Sequence record: NC_054914.1
Reading direction: 5' to 3' (one strand)
Length of the DNA stretch: 64,000 nucleotides
From: Escherichia phage vB_EcoM-fFiEco06
The notes under the pieces are model-generated. The model worked only from the letters and a program-made list of their open reading frames with translations, had not been told where the DNA came from and searched no databases. Shown one piece after another: positions 4,328 through 53,330 of this stretch. Within the stretch, counting starts at the first letter, position 1; each line of letters starts with the position of its first letter. The translations under genes were made by a program, and so were the position numbers.

Positions 4328-4347
4328 AAAGGCCCGAAGGCCTTTTA
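4328..4347 (-). terminator. C(UUCG)G-type hairpin between 39.1-like ORF and gene 39
   Basis: plus aaaggcc-cgaa-ggccttt; RNA stem AAAGGCC loop UUCG; weak U tract. Confidence 0.45.
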
Positions 4348-4614
4348 TTTAAAACGAATAGTCGAATCCTTGAAGAATAGTCCAGAACATACTGTTCCTT
4401 CTACTTTCTGCCCAGTAGGTCCAATAGCACGAAATCCAGTATGCTGGAAATCATTTTCAGAGCAACCGAACCAATTATATCCAGTGATTTCAATATTAGT
4501 AAAACCACTTGAAGACAAAACTTTGGTTGCATTATCAGCATCAGTACATCCTATTAAAGACACTGCTAATACTAATGCTGCGATAGAACGATTAATATAT
4601 TTCATAATTTTCAC
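4345..4614 (-). CDS. putative lipoprotein
   Basis: 89 aa; N-terminal signal with lipobox-like LIGC. Confidence 0.6.
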   Translation of the reverse strand: MKIMKYINRSIAALVLAVSLIGCTDADNATKVLSSSGFTNIEITGYNWFGCSENDFQHTGFRAIGPTGQKVEGTVCSGLFFKDSTIRFK

Positions 4615-7583: not shown

Positions 7584-7610
7584 TTTATTATCCTCAGTAG
7601 CTATGGTGTT

Positions 7611-7640
7611 ATAATACCACAACTAACCGAGGAAGTAAAC
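7611..7640 (-). promoter_or_regulatory. early promoter
   Basis: GTTTAC-N18-TATTAT on minus strand. Confidence 0.55.
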
Positions 7641-7646
7641 AACTTT

Positions 7647-8330
7647 TTATCGTTTTGTTGGAAGAGATAGAGGATCGCAATCTTCCTCTGATGGAGCATC
7701 TTCAAGACCCATAGCATATCGCAAAGCATACTTCATCATCAGGATGTCTTTCGCACAGTCATGGATAGAATCATGCGCAACGAATCCATCTAAAGTTCCT
7801 TTTGGAAGAGGACACGTGGTCATATCACGAACAAGTAGAAGTGCTTCAATTCTGGTACGAATATCACGCTGATTCCAGAATTTACATGGTTCTAACTTAA
7901 ATGTGTCAAGCTCATTCTCAGAAACACCATTAAGACGTTGAATATCACGAATGAGATCGACTAAAATTGGAAAATCAAACGACATTCCACGGCACCAGCC
8001 TTGAGATTTCCAAGGATCGATATTATGTGCATTGATGTAATCATTAAATTTTGCAATACCATCGATAGTGCTTACATCTTCATCTGATGGTGCAATATTT
8101 TTTCGAGCTTCAGGAGATTGGTTCTTCCACCATTCAATAGTGCTTTTAGTAAAAAGACGATGTCCTTTTTGGCTTTTTAAATCAAATTTGATTTTAATGC
8201 CGCGTGAAACTAATTCATCAAATGTTTCAACTACTTCTGGGTTAGGGTCAAAAGCAATTACAGCTAAATCAATAACAGCTGCCTTTTCGCCGCTTCCCAT
8301 TGTTTCAAAATCTATAATAAAATCAAACAT
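7647..8330 (-). CDS. dexA: exonuclease A, DnaQ-like 3'-5' exonuclease
   Basis: 227 aa; DFETMG exo motif near N-terminus; size and position match T4 dexA. Confidence 0.85.
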   Translation of the reverse strand: MFDFIIDFETMGSGEKAAVIDLAVIAFDPNPEVVETFDELVSRGIKIKFDLKSQKGHRLFTKSTIEWWKNQSPEARKNIAPSDEDVSTIDGIAKFNDYINAHNIDPWKSQGWCRGMSFDFPILVDLIRDIQRLNGVSENELDTFKLEPCKFWNQRDIRTRIEALLLVRDMTTCPLPKGTLDGFVAHDSIHDCAKDILMMKYALRYAMGLEDAPSEEDCDPLSLPTKR

Positions 8331-28533: not shown

Positions 28534-28551
28534 AAGGGGCCGAAGCCCCTT
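28534..28551 (-). terminator. C(UUCG)G hairpin after regA
   Basis: RNA AAGGGGC-UUCG-GCCCCUU; weak U tract. Confidence 0.45.
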
Positions 28552-28553
28552 GC

Positions 28554-28922
28554 TTAATTACCAATCGTATATTTAGGAACGAGTTTCCATTCATGTTTTT
28601 GTTTAAAAGAAATAACTCGGAAGTTATTAGTTAAATCTTTCATAAAAGTTCTTTGACCAGGAACGATTTCAATCAGTCCCCAATCTTCTAATAGCCATGC
28701 AATCGAATCACGACGAACTTCATCTTCTTCTGTCATTTCAACTTGGCGACCATCCATACGAAGCATTTCTTTAAAATGAACGATATAATATAGTCCTTTT
28801 TTCTGAAGAATATGACAGGACTGATACAGAACTTTATCTTTATTATTAGCAATTCCCATACGAGTCAAAGTTTCTTTTACTTTCAGAAAATCTTCAGGTT
28901 TTTTAAGAGTAATTTCAATCAT
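28554..28922 (-). CDS. regA: RegA translational repressor
   Basis: 122 aa; recalled as T4 RegA. Confidence 0.9.
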   Translation of the reverse strand: MIEITLKKPEDFLKVKETLTRMGIANNKDKVLYQSCHILQKKGLYYIVHFKEMLRMDGRQVEMTEEDEVRRDSIAWLLEDWGLIEIVPGQRTFMKDLTNNFRVISFKQKHEWKLVPKYTIGN

Positions 28923-30448: not shown

Positions 30449-30481
30449 AATTTCCTCATTCAAGTTTTAGTGTAAATTATA

Positions 30482-30496
30482 AAGGGCCGAAGCCCT
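30482..30496 (-). other. C(UUCG)G hairpin in the 45-44 intercistronic region
   Basis: RNA AGGGC-UUCG-GCCCU; no U tract. Confidence 0.45.
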
Positions 30497-30499
30497 CTA

Positions 30500-31186
30500 T
30501 TAAAAATCATGGGTAGAATCAGCTTCAAGAGCTACTACATAATTCGCATGTTCACCTTCAAATTTAGCAGCGCCTTGTTTACCTTTTGCCCAAAGCAGAA
30601 GTTTATAATTTCCTGGTTGCATTTTCATATTTGCCATATTGATAATGAAATTAAATGTGTTTTCACCATCATAATCACCAAGAGTCAAAGAATATTTAAC
30701 ACGAGTCAAAGCAGAATCTTCTACTTTATTAAAACCGTTAATTACGATTTTACCTTCTTTTACTGTGATAGCAATTGTATCAATCTGCAGACCGCGAGAT
30801 ACACGCAACAACTGTTGAAGGTCTTCAGCTTTAATTTCGGTAACAACAGATGCTACCGGGAATGGAATTGGTTTATTAGGAGCAACTACTGTACTCGGAT
30901 CGGCTGCTGGCCAAAAAATTGTTGAACGGGCATCAGCAATTTTAATATTTCCATCTTCTGACTGGGAAATTTCTGCATCATCATTAACTAGCGACAGAAT
31001 ACCGAGAAAACCGTTCAAATCGTAAATTGCTACATCAAAATCAATAACGTCAGAAATATTTGCTTCCGCGTAAGTTGTACCATTAACTGCGCGAGTCATA
31101 ATAAATTGACCGGATTTAAGCATAATGCCAGAGTTAATAGTAGCGAAATTTTTAAGCAGAGCAGTAGTATCTTTAGACAGTTTCAT
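30500..31186 (-). CDS. 45: sliding clamp
   Basis: 228 aa; recalled as T4 gp45. Confidence 0.9.
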   Translation of the reverse strand: MKLSKDTTALLKNFATINSGIMLKSGQFIMTRAVNGTTYAEANISDVIDFDVAIYDLNGFLGILSLVNDDAEISQSEDGNIKIADARSTIFWPAADPSTVVAPNKPIPFPVASVVTEIKAEDLQQLLRVSRGLQIDTIAITVKEGKIVINGFNKVEDSALTRVKYSLTLGDYDGENTFNFIINMANMKMQPGNYKLLLWAKGKQGAAKFEGEHANYVVALEADSTHDF

Positions 31187-35881: not shown

Positions 35882-35905
35882 TATATCAAACTCCGTATAA
35901 AGCTA

Positions 35906-35923
35906 AAGGGCCGAAGCCCTTTA
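35906..35923 (-). terminator. C(UUCG)G hairpin at end of a-gt
   Basis: RNA AAAGGGC-UUCG-GCCCUUU overlapping the a-gt stop codon. Confidence 0.5.
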
Positions 35924-37123
35924 TTTTGTAATAATGTCAAACTGTTCTTTAAAGCAGAAGCTTGAATCTTGATGCTGATACAAAAATTCATATGCTTTTT
36001 CTCGCTCACGGTCATAAAGAGCTCGGTCAGATGACAGTTCTTTAATACGTTCAAACGTTGATTCCATATCATTTTCATCAAACCAAATGATACCGCTATC
36101 ATGCGAGGTCAAAGGAGTATTATCAACACGGAATTTTAAATTTTCGCCAGTAGATTTCCAAAATACCGGAATTGTTCCACATGCACCAAGCTCGAGATGA
36201 GTATATTCTAAAGAACGTTGCAGATATTTTTTATCCAACTTACTCAACTGATAACCAAATCCGGATTTACTCATGCGTTCAAGCATTTCGCTATTTACAT
36301 AACGGTCAAGAATTTGCGTTGGCAAATTAGGAGCAATTTTAATTTGGTCTACTTGATGAAGACGATAATACTCGTATGGAATTCCTTTTTCTTTAATAGG
36401 AATGAACGCTGGAGAACGTTCCAGACCTTCCATAATAGTACTTAGTCCTGCAGGTTTAAGATGTTTTTCATGAAAATCAAACATCTGATAAAAACCTTTC
36501 CATGTAGTCGTACGACCAATCCAACGGTTGATATTCATGTTAATTTCAGAAACATCTTTCCAGTAGGTTGACCGAACCTTCGCAATATCCATAGGAGGCT
36601 GAAAGTTATATACTGTCGGTGCTTCTTCAATATCATCAAACAGAGAAACAGTTTCTGGATACCATTCTTTCATCAGAACTTTATTAAAATCACCATTATC
36701 AGAATGACTAAAAATAACATCAGCTCGACGAACAGTTTCTTCTAATCCCAAATTTCGACGCAAAGAAAGAGAAGAATGGTCATGTTGATAAACTACAACA
36801 CGAACAGAAGGTTTAATGTTATCAATAATTTTTTTATAGTTATTAATAGTGTCTTCTTCAACCGAAGTAGCAGGAACTGAATTGATAATTAGAATATCAC
36901 AATCATTTACCAGCTTAAGTGTTTTATCATATTCTTTTGCCAATAAAACCGGAATTGAAAATGATTTATAATCATGCGCGCAATTACGAGTAAATGATTT
37001 ATCTTTAGCATAAACCAAAGTTACTTCATGACCATTTTTAATAAACCAATCACGTTGCTCGAGTGAGAATTTTGTTACACCACAACCTTCAAGACCTCGA
37101 GCCATAAAAATACATACTTTCAT
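35921..37123 (-). CDS. a-gt: alpha-glucosyltransferase
   Basis: 400 aa; size and position after gene 47 match T4 alpha-gt. Confidence 0.8.
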   Translation of the reverse strand: MKVCIFMARGLEGCGVTKFSLEQRDWFIKNGHEVTLVYAKDKSFTRNCAHDYKSFSIPVLLAKEYDKTLKLVNDCDILIINSVPATSVEEDTINNYKKIIDNIKPSVRVVVYQHDHSSLSLRRNLGLEETVRRADVIFSHSDNGDFNKVLMKEWYPETVSLFDDIEEAPTVYNFQPPMDIAKVRSTYWKDVSEINMNINRWIGRTTTWKGFYQMFDFHEKHLKPAGLSTIMEGLERSPAFIPIKEKGIPYEYYRLHQVDQIKIAPNLPTQILDRYVNSEMLERMSKSGFGYQLSKLDKKYLQRSLEYTHLELGACGTIPVFWKSTGENLKFRVDNTPLTSHDSGIIWFDENDMESTFERIKELSSDRALYDREREKAYEFLYQHQDSSFCFKEQFDIITK

Positions 37124-39505: not shown

Positions 39506-39543
39506 ACATTATCCTCAATTACGTTAAAATTTTATTATCCAAA

Positions 39544-39559
39544 AAGGGCCGAAGCCCTT
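39544..39559 (-). terminator. C(UUCG)G hairpin with U-run
   Basis: RNA AAGGGC-UUCG-GCCCUU then UUUUGGAUAAUAAAAUUUU. Confidence 0.6.
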
Positions 39560-39758
39560 AGCTAAACTTTTTGGCACCCTTCCAGCCTTCGTACATCATT
39601 GCGACTGACAATGACAAAGCTCCTTCACATGCTGCATACTTATTATTCCAGAACCAATTTAGAAAAACTTCATCCTCAATACCATTGTGTTTCATGTTCT
39701 GGAAAAATTTGGCGCGTTCTTCAGCAATTCGCTGCGATAATTTAGATTCAGGATTCAT
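39558..39758 (-). CDS. hypothetical protein
   Basis: 66 aa ORF. Confidence 0.5.
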   Translation of the reverse strand: MNPESKLSQRIAEERAKFFQNMKHNGIEDEVFLNWFWNNKYAACEGALSLSVAMMYEGWKGAKKFS

Positions 39759-44219: not shown

Positions 44220-44260
44220 AATAAAACCCTTACCTTAAATAGATAAGGGTATTTATTATT

Positions 44261-44306
44261 TTTAAGTATTGTAAAACATTCGATGCAATCGTTTATACTG
44301 TCGAAT
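44261..44306. repeat. direct repeat copy A (about 45 bp)
   Basis: aagtattgtaaaacattcgatgcaatcgtttatactgtcgaatc; 4 mismatches to copy B at 44476..44521. Confidence 0.8.
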
Positions 44307-44438
44307 CATCTTTTTAGTAGGACGAGAATAGGTTCCTACGCAAGTGGTCATATGAGGGTCCGTAGAATGTCCTTTAATAAAAAGTTTCCAAACCTTACCG
44401 CCATTTAACTTTTCAGTATAAACCAATTCGGTTTTCAT
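44262..44438 (-). CDS. small ORF sharing its C-terminal 14 residues with the pin-like protein
   Basis: 58 aa ORF not in track; ends IRQYKRLHRMFYNT, encoded by repeat copy A. Confidence 0.4.
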   Translation of the reverse strand: MKTELVYTEKLNGGKVWKLFIKGHSTDPHMTTCVGTYSRPTKKMIRQYKRLHRMFYNT

Positions 44439-44474
44439 TAAAATGTCCTGTCAGAAAAAGAATTTTGAGTTTTT

Positions 44475-44960
44475 TCAAGTATTGTAAAACATTTGATGCA
44501 ATCGCTTATATTGCCGAATCTTTTGGTCAGAAAAAGAAATTTGAGTTTCAAGCCATTCAATGTACTCTGCGGCAGCTTGCATCAGGTTACCTTCATAGCC
44601 ATCGTTATTTTCTTGCGCAGCTAATTTAGCTAATGCGTATGAAATACGTTCACCTTGAAAAGCGGCTTTAGGCTTCTGAACATCTTGGCTAGTTCTCTCT
44701 ACAACTTCTTCAATTTCGCCATTTTCAACGGATTCAGTATTCCACAAACACCAGTATGTAATTGGCTTATCATAGATGTTAATAATCTTTCCGTCGGAAA
44801 GTTCAATTTCAATAATTCCAGTATCAGGTTCTATATCATCTTCGCATTCTTTTGCAAGTTCACGAACTTTAAAGACAGTACCTGCACTAAGTTCCGGCCA
44901 GTAATTACATAGCCCTGTATCAACACGATTAATTCTAAACCACTTATCTACTGTAATCAT
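44475..44960 (-). CDS. pin: Pin-like protein (candidate protease inhibitor)
   Basis: ATG at 44960 gives 161 aa; track start 44978 is TTG; symbol by size and position after gene 49. Confidence 0.5.
   Translation of the reverse strand: MITVDKWFRINRVDTGLCNYWPELSAGTVFKVRELAKECEDDIEPDTGIIEIELSDGKIINIYDKPITYWCLWNTESVENGEIEEVVERTSQDVQKPKAAFQGERISYALAKLAAQENNDGYEGNLMQAAAEYIEWLETQISFSDQKIRQYKRLHQMFYNT
44476..44521. repeat. direct repeat copy B
   Basis: aagtattgtaaaacatttgatgcaatcgcttatattgccgaatc; encodes C-terminus of the pin-like ORF. Confidence 0.8.
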
Positions 44961-45111
44961 GTCCCATCTCCATATCAATTAAGTCATTTATCGTTGGTTC
45001 ATTATATACTGTTTCTTCATCAGTGTAAACCGGTTCTTCCGGCTCTGGCTCTACAGTTTCCCATCTAGCCGCCCACCAAGGTTTAACCCCGAAGCTTATT
45101 AAGTTCTTCAT
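44944..45111 (-). CDS. small acidic hypothetical protein
   Basis: 55 aa ORF not in track; overlaps neighbours. Confidence 0.3.
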   Translation of the reverse strand: MKNLISFGVKPWWAARWETVEPEPEEPVYTDEETVYNEPTINDLIDMEMGHDYSR

Positions 45112-45253
45112 AATCAATCCAGGATTCTAATCCTGATGGCAAATCAGATTCAATTTCCCAAAGAAGCTCTTCAATTTTCTGAAGACGATCTAGTTCTTCG
45201 GCTGGAATAGTAACCATTGACGGAGCTCGTGATACATTAATATCGTAAATCAT
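45083..45253 (-). CDS. small acidic hypothetical protein
   Basis: 56 aa ORF not in track; start 2 nt after upstream stop. Confidence 0.35.
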   Translation of the reverse strand: MIYDINVSRAPSMVTIPAEELDRLQKIEELLWEIESDLPSGLESWIDYEELNKLRG

Positions 45254-45255
45254 AT

Positions 45256-45471
45256 TTACCCCAATTTAACCATACAATCGCCGTATTTCCACTTAGAAAT
45301 AGACTTTTCACCATTAGAATAATAAACTTCGAGTTTAGCACGATTATTTTTAATTTGAATAACCTTGGCTGTCATCAAAGTTCCATACCCATAATAAACT
45401 GCAACTTCATCACCTACATATACCGCGCTTCCGCGGTAATCATGAATATAGTCAGTTCCTTCAAGCATCAT
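45256..45471 (-). CDS. hypothetical protein
   Basis: 71 aa ORF; ATGA overlap with nrdC. Confidence 0.5.
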   Translation of the reverse strand: MMLEGTDYIHDYRGSAVYVGDEVAVYYGYGTLMTAKVIQIKNNRAKLEVYYSNGEKSISKWKYGDCMVKLG

Positions 45472-45731
45472 TTAAAATATTCTCGCAGTTGGTCAAATCC
45501 ACCAATATGACTTCCATCAGGAGCAAATACCTGGGGCATTGTCAAGCCGATTTGAGTATCACGACCTAGTTTAGTCAGAAGCTCAGCAATTTTCTCATCA
45601 TCAAAAACACCTTTTTCCGGCATAATGTTGATAAATTCAAACGGCTGTTTCTTCACGGTCAAAAGACGTTTTGCATTATCGCAATACACACATTTATGAA
45701 TGTTGCTATCATAACCATATACTTTAAACAT
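45468..45731 (-). CDS. nrdC: thioredoxin/glutaredoxin
   Basis: 87 aa; active site CVYC; recalled as T4 thioredoxin. Confidence 0.85.
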   Translation of the reverse strand: MFKVYGYDSNIHKCVYCDNAKRLLTVKKQPFEFINIMPEKGVFDDEKIAELLTKLGRDTQIGLTMPQVFAPDGSHIGGFDQLREYFK

Positions 45732-45977: not shown

Positions 45978-46367
45978 TTAATCCAAAATATTATTAGGCA
46001 TTGGTTGAACACTCACAAGTTCTTTAAAGAACTCAGTAGAGTCAGGCAATTTAACCATTTCCGGAGCATGCTTACTGAATTTATGTTTACATTGACGGCA
46101 TTTATATTCAAGCTCTGGTTTACGCCAGTTAATCAATTGAACTTGTTCAGTTCCACATTCAGGGCAATTAGGAACGTTTTTAGAAGCCCTTTCACGTCGT
46201 TCAACCATAGCCATAATAGCATCCCATGCTGGAGGTTTAAAATCTAAATCGTCGCAGCCGTGAATCTTTCCACGCATTTCCATATCATCTTCCTCACCAG
46301 CCATAATAATTTTAATTAAACTGGAATTACTTGAAGCTGCAATGTCTTCTAATAGACGCTTTTTCAT
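45978..46367 (-). CDS. hypothetical protein with zinc-ribbon motif
   Basis: 129 aa; CPECG ... CRQC. Confidence 0.55.
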
Positions 46368-47293
46368 TTCAATACCTCAATAGCATTACGTAAACCATTT
46401 GCTTTTGCATTAAGAGCTTTTAACAATTTGGTGTGTTCTGCAATTTGGGCTTCAACTTCAATCAAACGAGCATTGAGATATTCGCGTTCTTCACTCAGAT
46501 TATCAGCCTTTTCTGCTTTAGGTTCTTTTACAACTTGCTTATATGTATTAGGGTTCTTCAGTTTAATTAGAATGCGTGAACTGTACAGCATTGAATCATT
46601 ATCTTCGGTTTCGTCATACATTTCCACTACGTCCATCATCTCCACCATCGTGCAGAGTTTATAAGACAACGAACGAATAATTTTGTTGTGCTTATTAATT
46701 TCTCTAGCTGTCATGGTGCCGAGATTACGTGAGTAATAATAAGGAACCTGGATATTAATTAATACTGATGAACCACCTGGCTTGTGTGTTACTTCATCAG
46801 CAATAACCCAATCCTTAACATGAACTGTATTTGTACGGTCATCGCCCGCGGTAAATAGTTTACGAGCATGCTTAAAAAGCATATTCACTTGGTCATTGAA
46901 TTGACAAGCGAATTTATCAGCAAATTTAGTTTCGGGAATGGTAGATAACCAATCAGCCAAATGGGTCTTTTTAACATCGTTAACAATAGTAAATTCAACC
47001 AAATCGGTTATAGATGTCGCAGTTTTAATGAATCTCGGCTTCATAAAGTTTTTAATGTTATCGCGAGCTACAGTAGAAGATAACATACGAGAACGTTTAA
47101 ACCATTCAAGTAAATTGCCTAACGAATGAGAATAAGCGTTCTGAGTATCTTTACAGATATGATTTTCCTGGCCAACATACTGAAGGAAATCACGAAGAAT
47201 ATTATTGATTACTGCTCTGTGTCCTATCTGATAATCACGATGTTTAGTAATAAGACTGTCAAAATAATCAATATAATGTTTACGAGTTTTCAT
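46364..47293 (-). CDS. hypothetical protein with C-terminal coiled coil (paralog family member)
   Basis: 309 aa; C-terminal heptad-like region. Confidence 0.6.
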   Translation of the reverse strand: MKTRKHYIDYFDSLITKHRDYQIGHRAVINNILRDFLQYVGQENHICKDTQNAYSHSLGNLLEWFKRSRMLSSTVARDNIKNFMKPRFIKTATSITDLVEFTIVNDVKKTHLADWLSTIPETKFADKFACQFNDQVNMLFKHARKLFTAGDDRTNTVHVKDWVIADEVTHKPGGSSVLINIQVPYYYSRNLGTMTAREINKHNKIIRSLSYKLCTMVEMMDVVEMYDETEDNDSMLYSSRILIKLKNPNTYKQVVKEPKAEKADNLSEEREYLNARLIEVEAQIAEHTKLLKALNAKANGLRNAIEVLK

Positions 47294-47347
47294 GTTCTTC
47301 TCACTTGGTTAATGGTTTATACTCCGAGCCATCCTTGGCTTTAAATT

Positions 47348-48379
47348 TTACTTAATTAACTGTAAAGCTTGTTCAAGACGATCCAGGCGATTAACAGATT
47401 CTTCCCAAATCCTTTTAGCCTGCTCATATTCTTTCTGTGCTTTATTAGAAATTTCTAGAACTTCTTTATAAGCTTTTTCTAATGCAATAACTTCTGGACG
47501 AATTTCTACCGATTCAGGTGAATCATCAAGATTATCCATTAGTTCCTCAAGGGTAGTTTCTTCTTTAGGGGTATTCACAATTTCTTCACATTTTTGTTGA
47601 TAAATTTCTTTATTAGTAGGTGAGTACGCGCACTTTACTTCACGAAGACTAACTACAATTTTATATCCTTCCCAACCGCATATATTCTTAAAAGGATAAG
47701 TATGAATATTTTCTACCGTTTCCATACAAAGTAATGCAGTCTCTAACTGACGAGTTGTATCACTAGCAATTGAGAAAAATTTATTAATGTTCTTTTGATT
47801 AGCTTCTGGTGTAAAAAATTCATAATTCACAAAAATAGCTGCTTTATTTTTATCAAGTTCATATTCTTTTATGATAATCATATCAGAAGCCAAAGGATGA
47901 ATTTGACGATAATCGCCATAACATAATTTAGAAGCTGATTTTAGAATTTGCTTCTTGAAAAGTCTAAAATTACTAATCCAACGACGAGTAAAAATATTCT
48001 CAGGGTCTTCTTTATTATTAAGATGATAAGAATTAACATCACCGAACCAACTGTATCCTACTACATCTTTGGTTCGTTTAATTTCTTTCCCAAAATTACT
48101 AAGAATATCTTGATTAACTAAATATGAAAGAAGACGAGACCCTTTAAAGGTTTCCTTAATATCATCTTTATCTACACGACTAGAAATTTTATGAACTTCA
48201 TGAATAAATTTGCTGGAAGAAACAATACTTGCATCAGTATTGTTGAGCCACTGATTGATAATAGAAAGAACACTATTCTGACTAGACATAGGTTTAACTT
48301 TATCATCAATAACGCTATTGAATGATTTGATATATTCGTTACGAGTCATATTAATCTCCTCAGTAGAAAGTAAGAACAT
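47348..48379 (-). CDS. hypothetical protein with C-terminal coiled coil (paralog family member)
   Basis: 343 aa; RRWISNFRLFKKQILKSASKL aligns with the next ORF. Confidence 0.6.
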   Translation of the reverse strand: MFLLSTEEINMTRNEYIKSFNSVIDDKVKPMSSQNSVLSIINQWLNNTDASIVSSSKFIHEVHKISSRVDKDDIKETFKGSRLLSYLVNQDILSNFGKEIKRTKDVVGYSWFGDVNSYHLNNKEDPENIFTRRWISNFRLFKKQILKSASKLCYGDYRQIHPLASDMIIIKEYELDKNKAAIFVNYEFFTPEANQKNINKFFSIASDTTRQLETALLCMETVENIHTYPFKNICGWEGYKIVVSLREVKCAYSPTNKEIYQQKCEEIVNTPKEETTLEELMDNLDDSPESVEIRPEVIALEKAYKEVLEISNKAQKEYEQAKRIWEESVNRLDRLEQALQLIK

Positions 48380-48407
48380 TATACCACATCCTTGTGGTAA
48401 AGTAAAC
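48378..48407 (-). promoter_or_regulatory. early promoter, near-identical to the rIIA.1 promoter
   Basis: GTTTAC-N18-TATAAT; ttataccacatccttgtggtaaagtaaacta shared with 2431..2460. Confidence 0.6.
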
Positions 48408-49426
48408 TAGTTCAGCGCATTTAGTGCATTGTTCAATTTAGAACGTTGCTTCGTGAGATTTTTGACTTTTTCTTGAGCTTTTTCTAGCATCTTTTCAGCT
48501 TCTAGCACTTCATTAGTTGCTTTAACGAGTTCATCATCTACTGCCTTGATAGACTTCTCAATCGCATCCGCGTGCCATTTTTCAACAGGTTTAAGACTCG
48601 GATTTTCAATAGGAAGAAAATTCACTTTATTGAATTTCCATGCATCTTTATTACCTGAGCTATACATCCAAAATTTAGGATCGTTTGATGAGCAATTAGA
48701 TAAATTTAAGTTATCTTGCACTTCCTGCTTTTTCTCTTGCGGGACTTCATCCTTTCTCAAAAAATCGTATTTAAATGAAACGATCATATCAAGTTCATAC
48801 GTTGTTGTATGTTCCCAATTTCGCTCAAAATGAGGTAAAATCTTAGACTGAACAGCGGCAACAACATCCATATACTTAAATGCTTCTGTCAACTGTGATT
48901 TAAGGCATTCACAAATTGAAAGAGAATTTTTTGTATTAGGTTTAAAGCTAATTCGTGCAGTTCTATTATTTTCTTTTAATGGTCTTACTTCCATCTGAAG
49001 AGTATAACCATCAAATTTCAGGTTCTTTAAGTTAATGTCAGAACCTTTTAATCGACTAGCCGTCGACAAAATTTGCTTTAATTGTTTACGGAATAGAGCA
49101 ATAAATCTCCATTCAAGACGGTAATGATTTGGATTAAAAAATCCTGTTGATAAATCAACCTTACTCTGACCAACGCCTTGAACAAATAGAGGATTTTTAT
49201 AATCAATAGTTTTACAGAAATCGGTGAGCTGTTCGCGAGCAGTCATTTGCGTAATATATCCAGCTTTATCAAAATGTCGCAGCCATTCACTGCTATTCAT
49301 ATACTTAAAGTGAATGGAACTATTAACTCTATCAGGGTCTAAATTATTTTGGCACAAAAATGTCATAACATCACGAGTATAACTGGCATTACGAACCATA
49401 TCTTCAATTTGAGAACGAGTTTTCAT
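48407..49426 (-). CDS. hypothetical protein with C-terminal coiled coil (paralog family member)
   Basis: 339 aa; RLEWRFIALFRKQLKQILSTASRL. Confidence 0.6.
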   Translation of the reverse strand: MKTRSQIEDMVRNASYTRDVMTFLCQNNLDPDRVNSSIHFKYMNSSEWLRHFDKAGYITQMTAREQLTDFCKTIDYKNPLFVQGVGQSKVDLSTGFFNPNHYRLEWRFIALFRKQLKQILSTASRLKGSDINLKNLKFDGYTLQMEVRPLKENNRTARISFKPNTKNSLSICECLKSQLTEAFKYMDVVAAVQSKILPHFERNWEHTTTYELDMIVSFKYDFLRKDEVPQEKKQEVQDNLNLSNCSSNDPKFWMYSSGNKDAWKFNKVNFLPIENPSLKPVEKWHADAIEKSIKAVDDELVKATNEVLEAEKMLEKAQEKVKNLTKQRSKLNNALNALN

Positions 49427-49434
49427 GGTGTTCC

Positions 49435-50337
49435 TTAAAATTTAAGTAAATCAACGATTTTAATTAATTTTTCACGCTCAGATTTAGCTTTACTACTCAA
49501 TCCAGATAGTCTGAAAATTTCATCATCATATTGCTGAATAGAAATATTTAGCTCTTCAATCTGCTTATTAAAATAAGCAATTTGTTCAGAATGTTTTTCA
49601 TTACTGCGAACTGGTACAGGTTTTGTAGGTAATTTAGATGAACTGGATTCATTCGGGCGATAAATTAAAATACAACTTGAACCAATCGGACATTTAGCAC
49701 CAGATGAATATTCTAATGTTCCAGCTTCTTTTAAAACTTCAAAAGCTAAACAGAGATGATGCCCCATATTGACATAATCTGTAGAGTGAGCTCTGATGTA
49801 ATAATCATCTCCACGAGTACTAAATTTAAAGCATTTAAGGTCTTCTGTATTATTGGTCTTAAAAATCATTTGTTTATCTAGACCTTTAGCTAATCGAGCG
49901 CCTAATGCTAATAATCGTCGTTGATTTTCCCACAAATCCACAATCATTTGGTCAAATGATAATTTCGGCATTAGTCGACCATAAAGGTCATATCCTTTAT
50001 TATAATTGCGAAGGATTTCACTCGCATTAATACGAGACAACGCTCCAATTTTATTAAGGGCTTTCATGATGCGATTAGATAAACCCATTCCAGATCCGTT
50101 TGTTCGTTGCAAATGTTTATCTAATCCAAACCCAATATCAACTTTAAATTTATCTAAAATTTCAGCATGAACATCTCTGTCAATAACATTCAAATCCAAA
50201 GTTGGGTTAAATCTATGAAAAAATTTATCTGGCTCTCCACGACGAAGTACAGTCCATTCATTTAATTTTTTATTAACTAAAGATTTAATTACTGCATTGA
50301 CATTATTAATTACTACTGACATATTTTTCTCACTCAA
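49435..50337 (-). CDS. hypothetical protein with C-terminal coiled coil (paralog family member)
   Basis: 300 aa; LWENQRRLLALGARLAKGL. Confidence 0.6.
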   Translation of the reverse strand: MSEKNMSVVINNVNAVIKSLVNKKLNEWTVLRRGEPDKFFHRFNPTLDLNVIDRDVHAEILDKFKVDIGFGLDKHLQRTNGSGMGLSNRIMKALNKIGALSRINASEILRNYNKGYDLYGRLMPKLSFDQMIVDLWENQRRLLALGARLAKGLDKQMIFKTNNTEDLKCFKFSTRGDDYYIRAHSTDYVNMGHHLCLAFEVLKEAGTLEYSSGAKCPIGSSCILIYRPNESSSSKLPTKPVPVRSNEKHSEQIAYFNKQIEELNISIQQYDDEIFRLSGLSSKAKSEREKLIKIVDLLKF

Positions 50338-51321: not shown

Positions 51322-51349
51322 TTTGTGTTCCTCCGTAGTTGATAGTTGT

Positions 51350-51379
51350 ATAGTACCACAGAGGAACAGTCTTGTAAAC
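51350..51379 (-). promoter_or_regulatory. early promoter (second copy of repeated cassette)
   Basis: GTTTAC-N18-TACTAT; 42 nt identical to 25621..25662. Confidence 0.6.
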
Positions 51380-51381
51380 CA

Positions 51382-51696
51382 CTAAAAGAAACTTCTTTCA
51401 CAATTTTTTCCACTGAACCATGCGCTTACCGCTTTCTTAGTCTCAGGAGCAGTGTTATCCATAAACCATTCAAAGGCAGCCTTTTTATGATTCTGGAGGG
51501 CTTCTCGGGCTTTAATCTGCTCACGGTCTATTAACACTAACATATGAGCCTTTCTTGTCACCATGGGCTTCTTATGATTTTTTGAATACTCCCAGTCATT
51601 TGTCCATCGCATTGTCGTTGCGAACTTAAATACTGCTTCTTTAATTTTAGTTTCGTAAATTTCACGAGCCTTTGAGTATAACATCATTACCTCCAT
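51382..51696 (-). CDS. hypothetical protein
   Basis: 104 aa ORF. Confidence 0.5.
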   Translation of the reverse strand: MEVMMLYSKAREIYETKIKEAVFKFATTMRWTNDWEYSKNHKKPMVTRKAHMLVLIDREQIKAREALQNHKKAAFEWFMDNTAPETKKAVSAWFSGKNCERSFF

Positions 51697-52755: not shown

Positions 52756-52791
52756 TTTATTCTCCAATCTCACATTTGTTTTGATAGGGTA

Positions 52792-52821
52792 ATAGTATCA
52801 CACTACTACCCTTCTGTAAAC
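52792..52821 (-). promoter_or_regulatory. early promoter upstream of the ATPase
   Basis: GTTTAC-N18-TACTAT. Confidence 0.55.
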
Positions 52822-52824
52822 AAT

Positions 52825-53088
52825 TTATTTTAACGTTCGCCAAATTTTTACTGCTTCACGGCGAGATACTTCTACAGCTCCAAGTTCTACAGCTTTTTGG
52901 CGTCGGCGAGCGTGTAAGTCATAATGTTTAATGCGTTTATCTTGAAACCAAGAACGTTTCATTCCTATTGCTTCTGCCATTTCATGAAGCTCTTCAATAT
53001 CTCCATCAGTGAACATATGACAATTTTTAGTTGGATGACCGCGAAGTTTCCATCCATGATTCATTAAAACATCTACGTAAACTGTCAT
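52825..53088 (-). CDS. hypothetical protein
   Basis: 87 aa ORF. Confidence 0.5.
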   Translation of the reverse strand: MTVYVDVLMNHGWKLRGHPTKNCHMFTDGDIEELHEMAEAIGMKRSWFQDKRIKHYDLHARRRQKAVELGAVEVSRREAVKIWRTLK

Positions 53089-53234: not shown

Positions 53235-53271
53235 TTTGTTTTTCCGTTTAAGTGTTTGTTTTGATAGTTGT

Positions 53272-53301
53272 ATAGTACCATAAAGCTTTATGCTTGTAAA
53301 C
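53272..53301 (-). promoter_or_regulatory. early promoter (partial copy of repeated cassette)
   Basis: GTTTAC-N18-TACTAT. Confidence 0.55.
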
Positions 53302-53330
53302 AATTTTGTGAAAAATTTTTGAAATAAAAA

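Follow-up and report, generated by a model that had tools for sequence, protein, structure and literature searches.

The closest described counterpart of the locus discussed here is nrdC.5 of phage T4, and the locus itself is a row of four genes, nrdC.3, nrdC.4, nrdC.5 and nrdC.6, in a 64,000-nucleotide (nt) stretch of DNA from Escherichia phage vB_EcoM-fFiEco06 (NC_054914.1), the whole of which is called the window below. T4 nrdC.5 is described as an early gene and counteracts Dsr1, a SIR2-domain defence protein whose effector is of the SIR2 NADase type. An evolved T4 clone carrying a deletion is unable to infect ECOR17 owing to Dsr1, and expression of T4 nrdC.5 restored plating of the deletion mutant on K-12 carrying dsr1 (Srikant, Guegler and Laub, eLife 2022, PMC9391042). 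Dsr1 has its sensor in common with Avs7, and the trigger is the phage major capsid protein (PMC13581612). A phage inhibitor is also known for DSR2: DSAD1 of phage SPbeta, which attaches to the sensor region and blocks the trigger, the tail tube. Other anti-defence genes lie near nrdC.5 in T4, nrdC.1 acting against Septu and gp49.2 against OLD. These two and Pin, all unrelated small proteins, belong to the same early, non-essential accessory block, which behaves as an anti-defence island.

The window nrdC.5 is the orthologue of the T4 gene, 91% identical over its full length and set in the same place, between nrdC.6 and nrdC.4 and with the same promoter downstream. The other three genes are likewise direct orthologues of T4 genes, with identities of 60% (nrdC.3), 91% (nrdC.4) and 97% (nrdC.6), the window nrdC.3 being the other allele of that gene. 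The published activity is that of the T4 allele of nrdC.5 against the Dsr1 of ECOR17, and about 9% of the residues differ in the window protein; going by this degree of identity, the window gene is likely to be an anti-Dsr1 gene too. There is a possible likeness in logic to DSAD1, in that each phage protein counters a defence-associated sirtuin that senses a protein of the virion, though the target of DSAD1 is DSR2, not Dsr1. A Foldseek search of the Protein Data Bank (PDB), a library that should include the DSR2-DSAD1 complexes, gave no significant match and no DSR2 or DSAD1 label among the 50 matches listed. NrdC.5 may by analogy work like DSAD1 but is not a member of its family.

What can be added to this picture is that nrdC.5 is not alone: nrdC.3, nrdC.4, nrdC.5 and nrdC.6 are ancient tandem paralogs that form one superfamily confined to T4-like phages. 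The original prediction, made from the letters alone, had placed four consecutive genes here, and the open reading frame (ORF) list agrees, all four lying on the minus strand. The predicted sizes of 300-343 amino acids (aa) and the predicted end at 50337 do not hold; with corrected starts the array spans 46364-50322 and the proteins are 295-339 aa long (Table 1). The nrdC.6 start is most likely ATG 50322 rather than TTG 50337, because the orthologues all begin with MS and a Shine-Dalgarno-like GAGTGAGA precedes this ATG. For nrdC.4, the GenBank record and the ORF list have a longer form of 343 aa that extends to 48379, but ATG 48349 is most likely the true start, because it has the Shine-Dalgarno sequence GAGGAG, T4 is annotated from MTRNEY and ATG 48379 lies inside the -10 box of a promoter.

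The gene names come from the annotation of MG781191.1 (vB_EcoM-fHoEco02, Tequatrovirus), to which about 4.8 kb around the array is 100% identical in DNA and coordinates, and from synteny with the T4T genome. The array is flanked by nrdC.2 and nrdC.7 within an early accessory block that runs from gene 49/pin to nrdC.11, and it is present whole, at 90-99% identity, in about 460 other T4-like phage records. Family membership is clear for each gene. The PHROG 1435 profile matches nrdC.3 (E value 2.9e-115) and nrdC.4 (E 8.5e-166), and PF26897 is carried by homologues at least 89% identical to nrdC.4 in precomputed tables. The PHROG 2257 profile matches nrdC.6 (E 3.9e-151), and the homologues that carry PF26899 are 94-97% identical to it. 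NrdC.5 scores 416.2 bits against DUF7235, far above the cut-off of 30, and covers model positions 1-307 of 307, while nrdC.3, nrdC.4 and nrdC.6 give no match to that model even at E<=1.

Table 1. Genes, shared elements and promoters of the nrdC.3-nrdC.6 array (window coordinates)
Feature	Position	Strand	Description
nrdC.3	46364-47293	minus	309 aa; PHROG 1435 / Pfam PF26897 (Phage_T4_Y04OP); RB14-type allele
nrdC.4	47348-48349	minus	333 aa from ATG 48349 (most likely start; MTRNEY); PHROG 1435
nrdC.5	48407-49426	minus	339 aa; Pfam DUF7235 (PF23882); orthologue of the T4 anti-Dsr1 gene
nrdC.6	49435-50322	minus	295 aa from ATG 50322 (most likely start); PHROG 2257; close homologues with PF26899
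Central motif, nrdC.3	46856-46915	minus	aa 127-146
Central motif, nrdC.4	47924-47983	minus	aa 123-142
Central motif, nrdC.5	49049-49111	minus	aa 106-126; WRFIALFRKQLKQILSTASRL
Central motif, nrdC.6	49891-49938	minus	aa 129-144
C-terminal tail, nrdC.3	46367-46501	minus	
C-terminal tail, nrdC.4	47351-47485	minus	
C-terminal heptad helix, nrdC.5	48410-48544	minus	aa 295-339
C-terminal tail, nrdC.6	49438-49572	minus	
M(K)TR.(E/H)Y coding DNA, nrdC.3	47282-47293		N-terminus
M(K)TR.(E/H)Y coding DNA, nrdC.4	48338-48349		N-terminus
M(K)TR.(E/H)Y coding DNA, nrdC.5	49415-49426		N-terminus
T4-type early promoter	48378-48407	minus	GTTTAC, 17 nt, TGgTATAAT; between the nrdC.5 stop codon and nrdC.4
Second promoter copy	2429-2460	minus	exact over 32 nt; upstream of a 67-aa rIIA.1-like ORF and rIIA

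The relationship between the four proteins is too distant for pairwise alignment to reveal in full. When Smith-Waterman scores are set against 500 shuffles, nrdC.3/nrdC.4 is the only pair clearly above the controls (z=10.6). The scores are lower for nrdC.4/nrdC.5 (z=3.3-3.9) and nrdC.3/nrdC.5 (z=1.7), that for nrdC.3/nrdC.6 (z=3.6) is due to the tails, and nrdC.4/nrdC.6 and nrdC.5/nrdC.6 are at chance level. BLASTP and Smith-Waterman together are thus convincing for nrdC.3/nrdC.4 alone, and pairwise statistics therefore cannot settle a four-way homology. Comparison of profiles gives a different result. Profiles were built from orthologues of T4, Gaprivervirus VR26, Dhakavirus MX01 and IME281 and Mosigvirus JS09 plus database matches, and hhalign scores were judged against 80 column-shuffled controls. 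The probability is 97.8% (E 1.3e-12, shuffle control not run) for nrdC.3/nrdC.4, 92% (E 6.6e-7 over 232 columns, z=12.0) for nrdC.3/nrdC.5 and 65% (E 5.9e-5, z=8.6) for nrdC.4/nrdC.5. The small per-family profiles give only 4-13% against nrdC.6 (nrdC.4/nrdC.6, 12.8%, E 2.3e-3, z=4.9; nrdC.5/nrdC.6, 3.8%, E 1.1e-2, z=4.0), but the union of nrdC.3, nrdC.4 and nrdC.5 reaches 71.4% (E 3.6e-5, z=10.3). In every shuffled comparison none of the 80 controls attains the observed score.

Widening the profiles strengthens the connection to nrdC.6. A broad nrdC.3/4/5 profile that includes distant members matches a 32-sequence nrdC.6 profile at 92.6% (E 4.7e-7), and the alignment pairs residues 44-141 of nrdC.5 with residues 81-157 of nrdC.6, which is the motif region. 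A bridging sequence is also available in the single family protein (335 aa) of Enterobacter phage IME523 (Kanagawavirus), which scores 28.3 bits with the nrdC.5 hidden Markov model (HMM) and 29.1 bits with the nrdC.6 HMM, matches the nrdC.6 profile at 94.3% over 163 columns, and combines the nrdC.6-specific 'EFKT' with a tail of the nrdC.5 type. PHROG 1435 already contains both nrdC.3 and nrdC.4. The identity and paralogy of the four genes are thus close to certain. The paralogy that the original prediction proposed is upheld by profiles, by the order of secondary-structure elements in two models and by the bridging sequence but, outside nrdC.3/nrdC.4, not by pairwise alignment; in the comparison with shuffles that it suggested, nrdC.6 would fail pairwise, whereas the profile scores lie above all controls. 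The four-way link is new, the databases holding three separate families.

The central motif on which the prediction had been based is present in all four proteins, where it aligns in register; its consensus is F..F+..(K)..IL..A(S/R)+L. AlphaFold2 models were made for two of the four, nrdC.6 (predicted local distance difference test score, pLDDT, 77) and nrdC.5 (pLDDT 70, from an alignment mixed with nrdC.3 and nrdC.4 sequences), and in both the motif falls on a helix pair (104-114 and 116-127 in nrdC.5; 123-132 and 134-146 in nrdC.6). Both chains follow one order, from N-terminal helices through the motif helix pair and a β-hairpin/helix/β-hairpin unit to a disordered linker and then a long C-terminal helix (280-338 in nrdC.5, 245-294 in nrdC.6). 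The heptad-rich C-termini that had been noted in all four proteins are recovered in three. Heptad periodicity over the last ~45 residues is equalled by none of 200 shuffles for nrdC.5, 5 of 200 for nrdC.6 and 9 of 200 for nrdC.4; by this crude test the nrdC.3 tail is indistinguishable from its shuffles. The family-wide ending is L..A(L/I)..LK, with L331 and A334 nearly invariant in the superfamily alignment. At the other end of the protein, an M(K)TR.(E/H)Y N-terminus is almost invariant in the nrdC.3/4/5 superfamily and absent from nrdC.6.

The only invariant or near-invariant columns of the superfamily are T3, R4, F70, V189, L331 and A334. Such a pattern, in which no polar residue that would suit catalysis is conserved, is more like that of a protein with a structural or binding role than that of an enzyme, as far as sequence can tell. 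Both models match uncharacterised 300-375-aa proteins of other T4-like phages in BFVD, and four of the top ten matches are common to the two (Erwinia Cronus, Klebsiella Mineola, Acinetobacter Acj61 and Yersinia fHe-Yen9-01). Foldseek against the PDB gave nothing significant, its best hit (E 8e-3) being to H-NOX domains; searches of the PDB by sequence gave no match either, and Pfam and NCBIfam gave no significant match to families of known function. The weak matches to H-NOX, ARPC2, ribosomal S6, the gpU tail terminator and the XerD N-domain were dismissed as evidence.

When 1.84 billion representative proteins were searched exhaustively by HMM, there were no more than 21 matches, which limits the family to T4-like phages (Straboviridae). 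Its copy number varies between genera: a typical Tequatrovirus has four family genes, Mosigvirus, Dhakavirus and Gaprivervirus have three, and the Klebsiella- and Enterobacter-type genera have one. A 262-272-aa gene that adjoins the single member in a Klebsiella-type phage was checked as a further paralog and is not one. Copy number also varies within Tequatrovirus, where Bas43 (TadeuszReichstein) has nrdC.3 only, ACG-C40 and P0056 have an nrdC.5::nrdC.3 hybrid, and 235Ecol030PP has lost nrdC.4. This last loss occurred via recombination at ACTCGTAA, which encodes the conserved M(K)TR.(E/H)Y start and is common to the 5' ends of nrdC.4 and nrdC.3, and it left an 'MTR+KHY…' hybrid immediately behind the promoter.

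For nrdC.3, two old alleles coexist in one genus, with ~60% protein identity and a synonymous divergence (dS) of ~1. Between them, ~75 residues at the start and ~35 at the end are conserved; the middle is 36-68% identical. The window allele is nearer to that of Mosigvirus JS09 (75%) than to that of T4 (60%). The ratio of non-synonymous to synonymous divergence (dN/dS) between the window phage and T4 is 0.31 for nrdC.3, 0.19 for both nrdC.4 and nrdC.5, and 0.08 for nrdC.6, compared with 0-0.13 for most neighbouring genes. Changes in copy number, hybrid genes, the nrdC.3 alleles and raised dN/dS would be signatures of an arms race, as circumstantial evidence drawn from comparison of genomes.

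On balance, the best explanation of the locus is that it is an early array of paralogous counter-defence binders built on one scaffold. The original prediction had offered host-range or counter-defence roles for the array; counter-defence has published support for T4 nrdC.5, and for nrdC.3, nrdC.4 and nrdC.6 the support is circumstantial. It consists of their non-essentiality in T4, their presence and absence among relatives, the hybrids, the nrdC.3 alleles, the dN/dS values and the proven anti-defence neighbours. The chance that these three are themselves counter-defence factors is put at about even. In the array so conceived, the four proteins would be made early, as the promoter inside the block and the early class of T4 nrdC.5 suggest, and would be dispensable on laboratory hosts; all four T4 genes are classed as non-essential by HIDEN-SEQ transposon data. 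They would act as non-catalytic binders that form dimers or oligomers through the C-terminal helix. The window nrdC.5 would neutralise Dsr1 as the T4 copy does, and nrdC.3, nrdC.4 and nrdC.6 would be diversified versions directed at other immune proteins or variants of them, with the variable central domain setting specificity so that paralogs and alleles might hit different targets. A binder of this kind could occupy the immune sensor before its late trigger appears, the trigger for Dsr1 being the major capsid protein. Such direct blocking of the sensor is proposed as the mechanism only tentatively, and is rated as somewhat less likely than not.

A more elaborate version of the sensor-blocking idea would have the four paralogs form a panel, in which the conserved N-terminus and the C-terminal coiled coil provide a dimeric frame and a fast-changing central alpha/beta domain gives each copy, as well as each nrdC.3 allele, its own target among different bacterial pattern-recognition sensors. 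Candidate targets would be members of the large Avs7/Dsr1 family of capsid sensors, which is fused to more than 20 types of effector, and mimicry of the surface of a virion protein might be how the central domain works. As a whole, this version seems distinctly unlikely.

A number of points weigh against an array of counter-defence binders. The published work on T4 nrdC.5 is genetic suppression of Dsr1, not physical interaction (PMC9391042). Full-text literature searches found no paper on the function of nrdC.3, nrdC.4 or nrdC.6. In one host-comparison table of the HIDEN-SEQ data, insertions in T4 nrdC.3-nrdC.6 cause no significant change in fitness (q=1.0). Overall dN/dS is below one, and there is therefore no proof of positive selection. 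The link that ties nrdC.6 to the array has its own weaknesses, in the chance-level pairwise scores with nrdC.4 and nrdC.5 and in a profile alignment that spans only 77-163 columns, and the structural comparison has to be read with the moderate confidence of both models and the mixed alignment behind that of nrdC.5 in mind.

The alternative that fares best is that nrdC.5 is the sole counter-defence gene, and that nrdC.3, nrdC.4 and nrdC.6 serve, on the same scaffold, routine functions in host takeover or regulation, such as early binding of a host or phage nucleic-acid or protein complex. It would sit well with the fact that no phenotype has been reported for these three genes and that none shows a significant conditional effect in the HIDEN-SEQ table just mentioned, with the strong conservation of nrdC.6, and with a weak likeness of residues 30-88 of nrdC.3 to the N-terminal helical domain of tyrosine recombinases, which is below threshold (E 9e-4, 18.6 bits against a cut-off of 279). 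However, the free loss, fusion and replacement of nrdC.3-nrdC.6 among close relatives fits accessory genes better than core takeover genes, nrdC.3 has two deep alleles in one genus, and the neighbourhood is rich in proven anti-defence genes, so that this alternative appears rather unlikely.

Another possibility is that the proteins counter immunity that depletes nicotinamide adenine dinucleotide (NAD+) indirectly, by shielding or chaperoning unassembled capsid protein or through NAD+ metabolism, and not by binding the sensor. Dsr1 does have an NADase-type effector triggered by capsid protein, phages are known to rebuild NAD+ by NARP pathways against DSR1, and the nrdC.5 model has recurrent, non-significant Foldseek matches to small neck and tail-completion proteins of virions (E 0.01-0.05) and to gpU (E 0.12). 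Enzymatic rescue of NAD+ can be rejected, since the family has no conserved polar residues fit for catalysis and no match to any NAD-related family in Pfam or NCBIfam. Shielding is still compatible with early genes and a late capsid protein, but pre-emptive blocking of the sensor is the simpler account of that timing, and the indirect route is judged improbable overall. Finally, that nrdC.6 is no true paralog and resembles the others by convergence of a short amphipathic-helix motif and a coiled-coil tail would agree with its chance-level pairwise scores, its low family-to-family probabilities and its separate families in Pfam and PHROGs, but it is very hard to reconcile with the broad and union profile scores, the equal fit of the IME523 protein to both HMMs, the common order of elements and four common Foldseek targets of the two models, and the retention of nrdC.6 beside nrdC.5 in four genera.

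The promoter between nrdC.5 and nrdC.4, with its extended -10 element, scores 10 of 12 in a consensus scan and is the sole meaningful match of that scan, which otherwise gave no excess of promoter-like matches (24 against 26.8 expected in shuffles) and few terminator-like matches, not clearly above shuffles. The site is conserved in phage 235Ecol030PP and, but for one mismatch, in T4T. The original prediction described this promoter as duplicated, and it has indeed an exact 32-nt copy elsewhere in the window, a repeat of which none is expected by chance. It is nevertheless one of many near-identical T4 early promoters (window families D1-D3) and not a special duplication. The D1 and D2 repeats are near-identical extended T4 early promoters of 47-60 nt on the minus strand (…GTTTAC…TGGTATAcTATAC…), D1 lying at 51339-51398, 52781-52840, 53261-53320 and five more places and D2 at 7610-7656 and others. 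Three such copies stand directly upstream of nrdC.8, nrdC.10 and the DUF4031 gene, and the nrdC block is therefore split into several early transcription units.

An Rfam scan of the block found no RNA family. The spacer between nrdC.4 and nrdC.3 (47294-47347) contains a small hairpin, AGCCA-AGGA-TGGCT, followed by CGGAGTATAAAC. The GGAG here is a possible site of RegB cleavage, and the TATAAA might be a degenerate box resembling that of late promoters. Elsewhere in the window, a GC-rich hairpin, AAAGGGCCGAAGCCCTTT, recurs at 4328-4351, 28534-28557, 30481-30504, 35905-35928 and 39543-39566; it is of a type typical of intrinsic terminators or RNA-stabilising stem-loops in T4-like phages.

The anti-defence neighbourhood of the window phage differs in part from that of T4. 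By record annotation, pin in the block encodes a Lon inhibitor. Gp49.2 is absent: tblastn of T4 genes 49.2 and 49.3 against the whole window gave no match, and two unrelated small ORFs (56 and 71 aa) replace them at 45083-45471, between 49.1 and nrdC. A 63-nt direct repeat with 83% identity (44245-44307 and 44458-44520) overlaps the minus-strand genes at 44262-44438 and 44475-44960, the latter being pin. The last ~14 residues of Pin (…IRQYKRLH(R/Q)MFYNT) recur at the end of the 58-aa ORF downstream of it, which suggests that this ORF duplicates part of the 3' end of pin.

The product label 'thioredoxin' on nrdC.3-nrdC.6 derives merely from the NrdC.x locus names, since Pfam and NCBIfam show no thioredoxin or glutaredoxin fold in any of these proteins. 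The error is widely propagated, every nrdC.x gene in MG781191.1 (46364-51684 and 51787-52755) and in hundreds of related records being so labelled, while the only true thioredoxin/glutaredoxin of the block is nrdC (45468-45731). The neighbouring nrdC.2 (45978-46367) is 129 aa long against 104 aa in T4, with 78% identity over 100 aa, and has two CxxC pairs and zinc-ribbon matches below threshold. Its record note, 'tRNA synthetase class I (K) superfamily', comes from a weak match (E 1.2e-3) below the cut-off.

The genes themselves and the function of T4 nrdC.5 were already known. To these are added the superfamily link, the picture of a scaffold with a variable domain, the dynamics of copy number and alleles, and the candidate status of nrdC.3, nrdC.4 and nrdC.6. 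NrdC.5 has so far been an orphan anti-Dsr1 factor, and the family link makes three mislabelled 'thioredoxin' genes candidate inhibitors of other immune sensors. The distinction between a conserved scaffold (N-terminus, motif helices and C-terminal helix) and a variable central domain can serve as a guide in designing experiments on binding and domain swaps. In phage therapy, knowing which of nrdC.3-nrdC.6 a T4-like phage carries may help to predict its host range.

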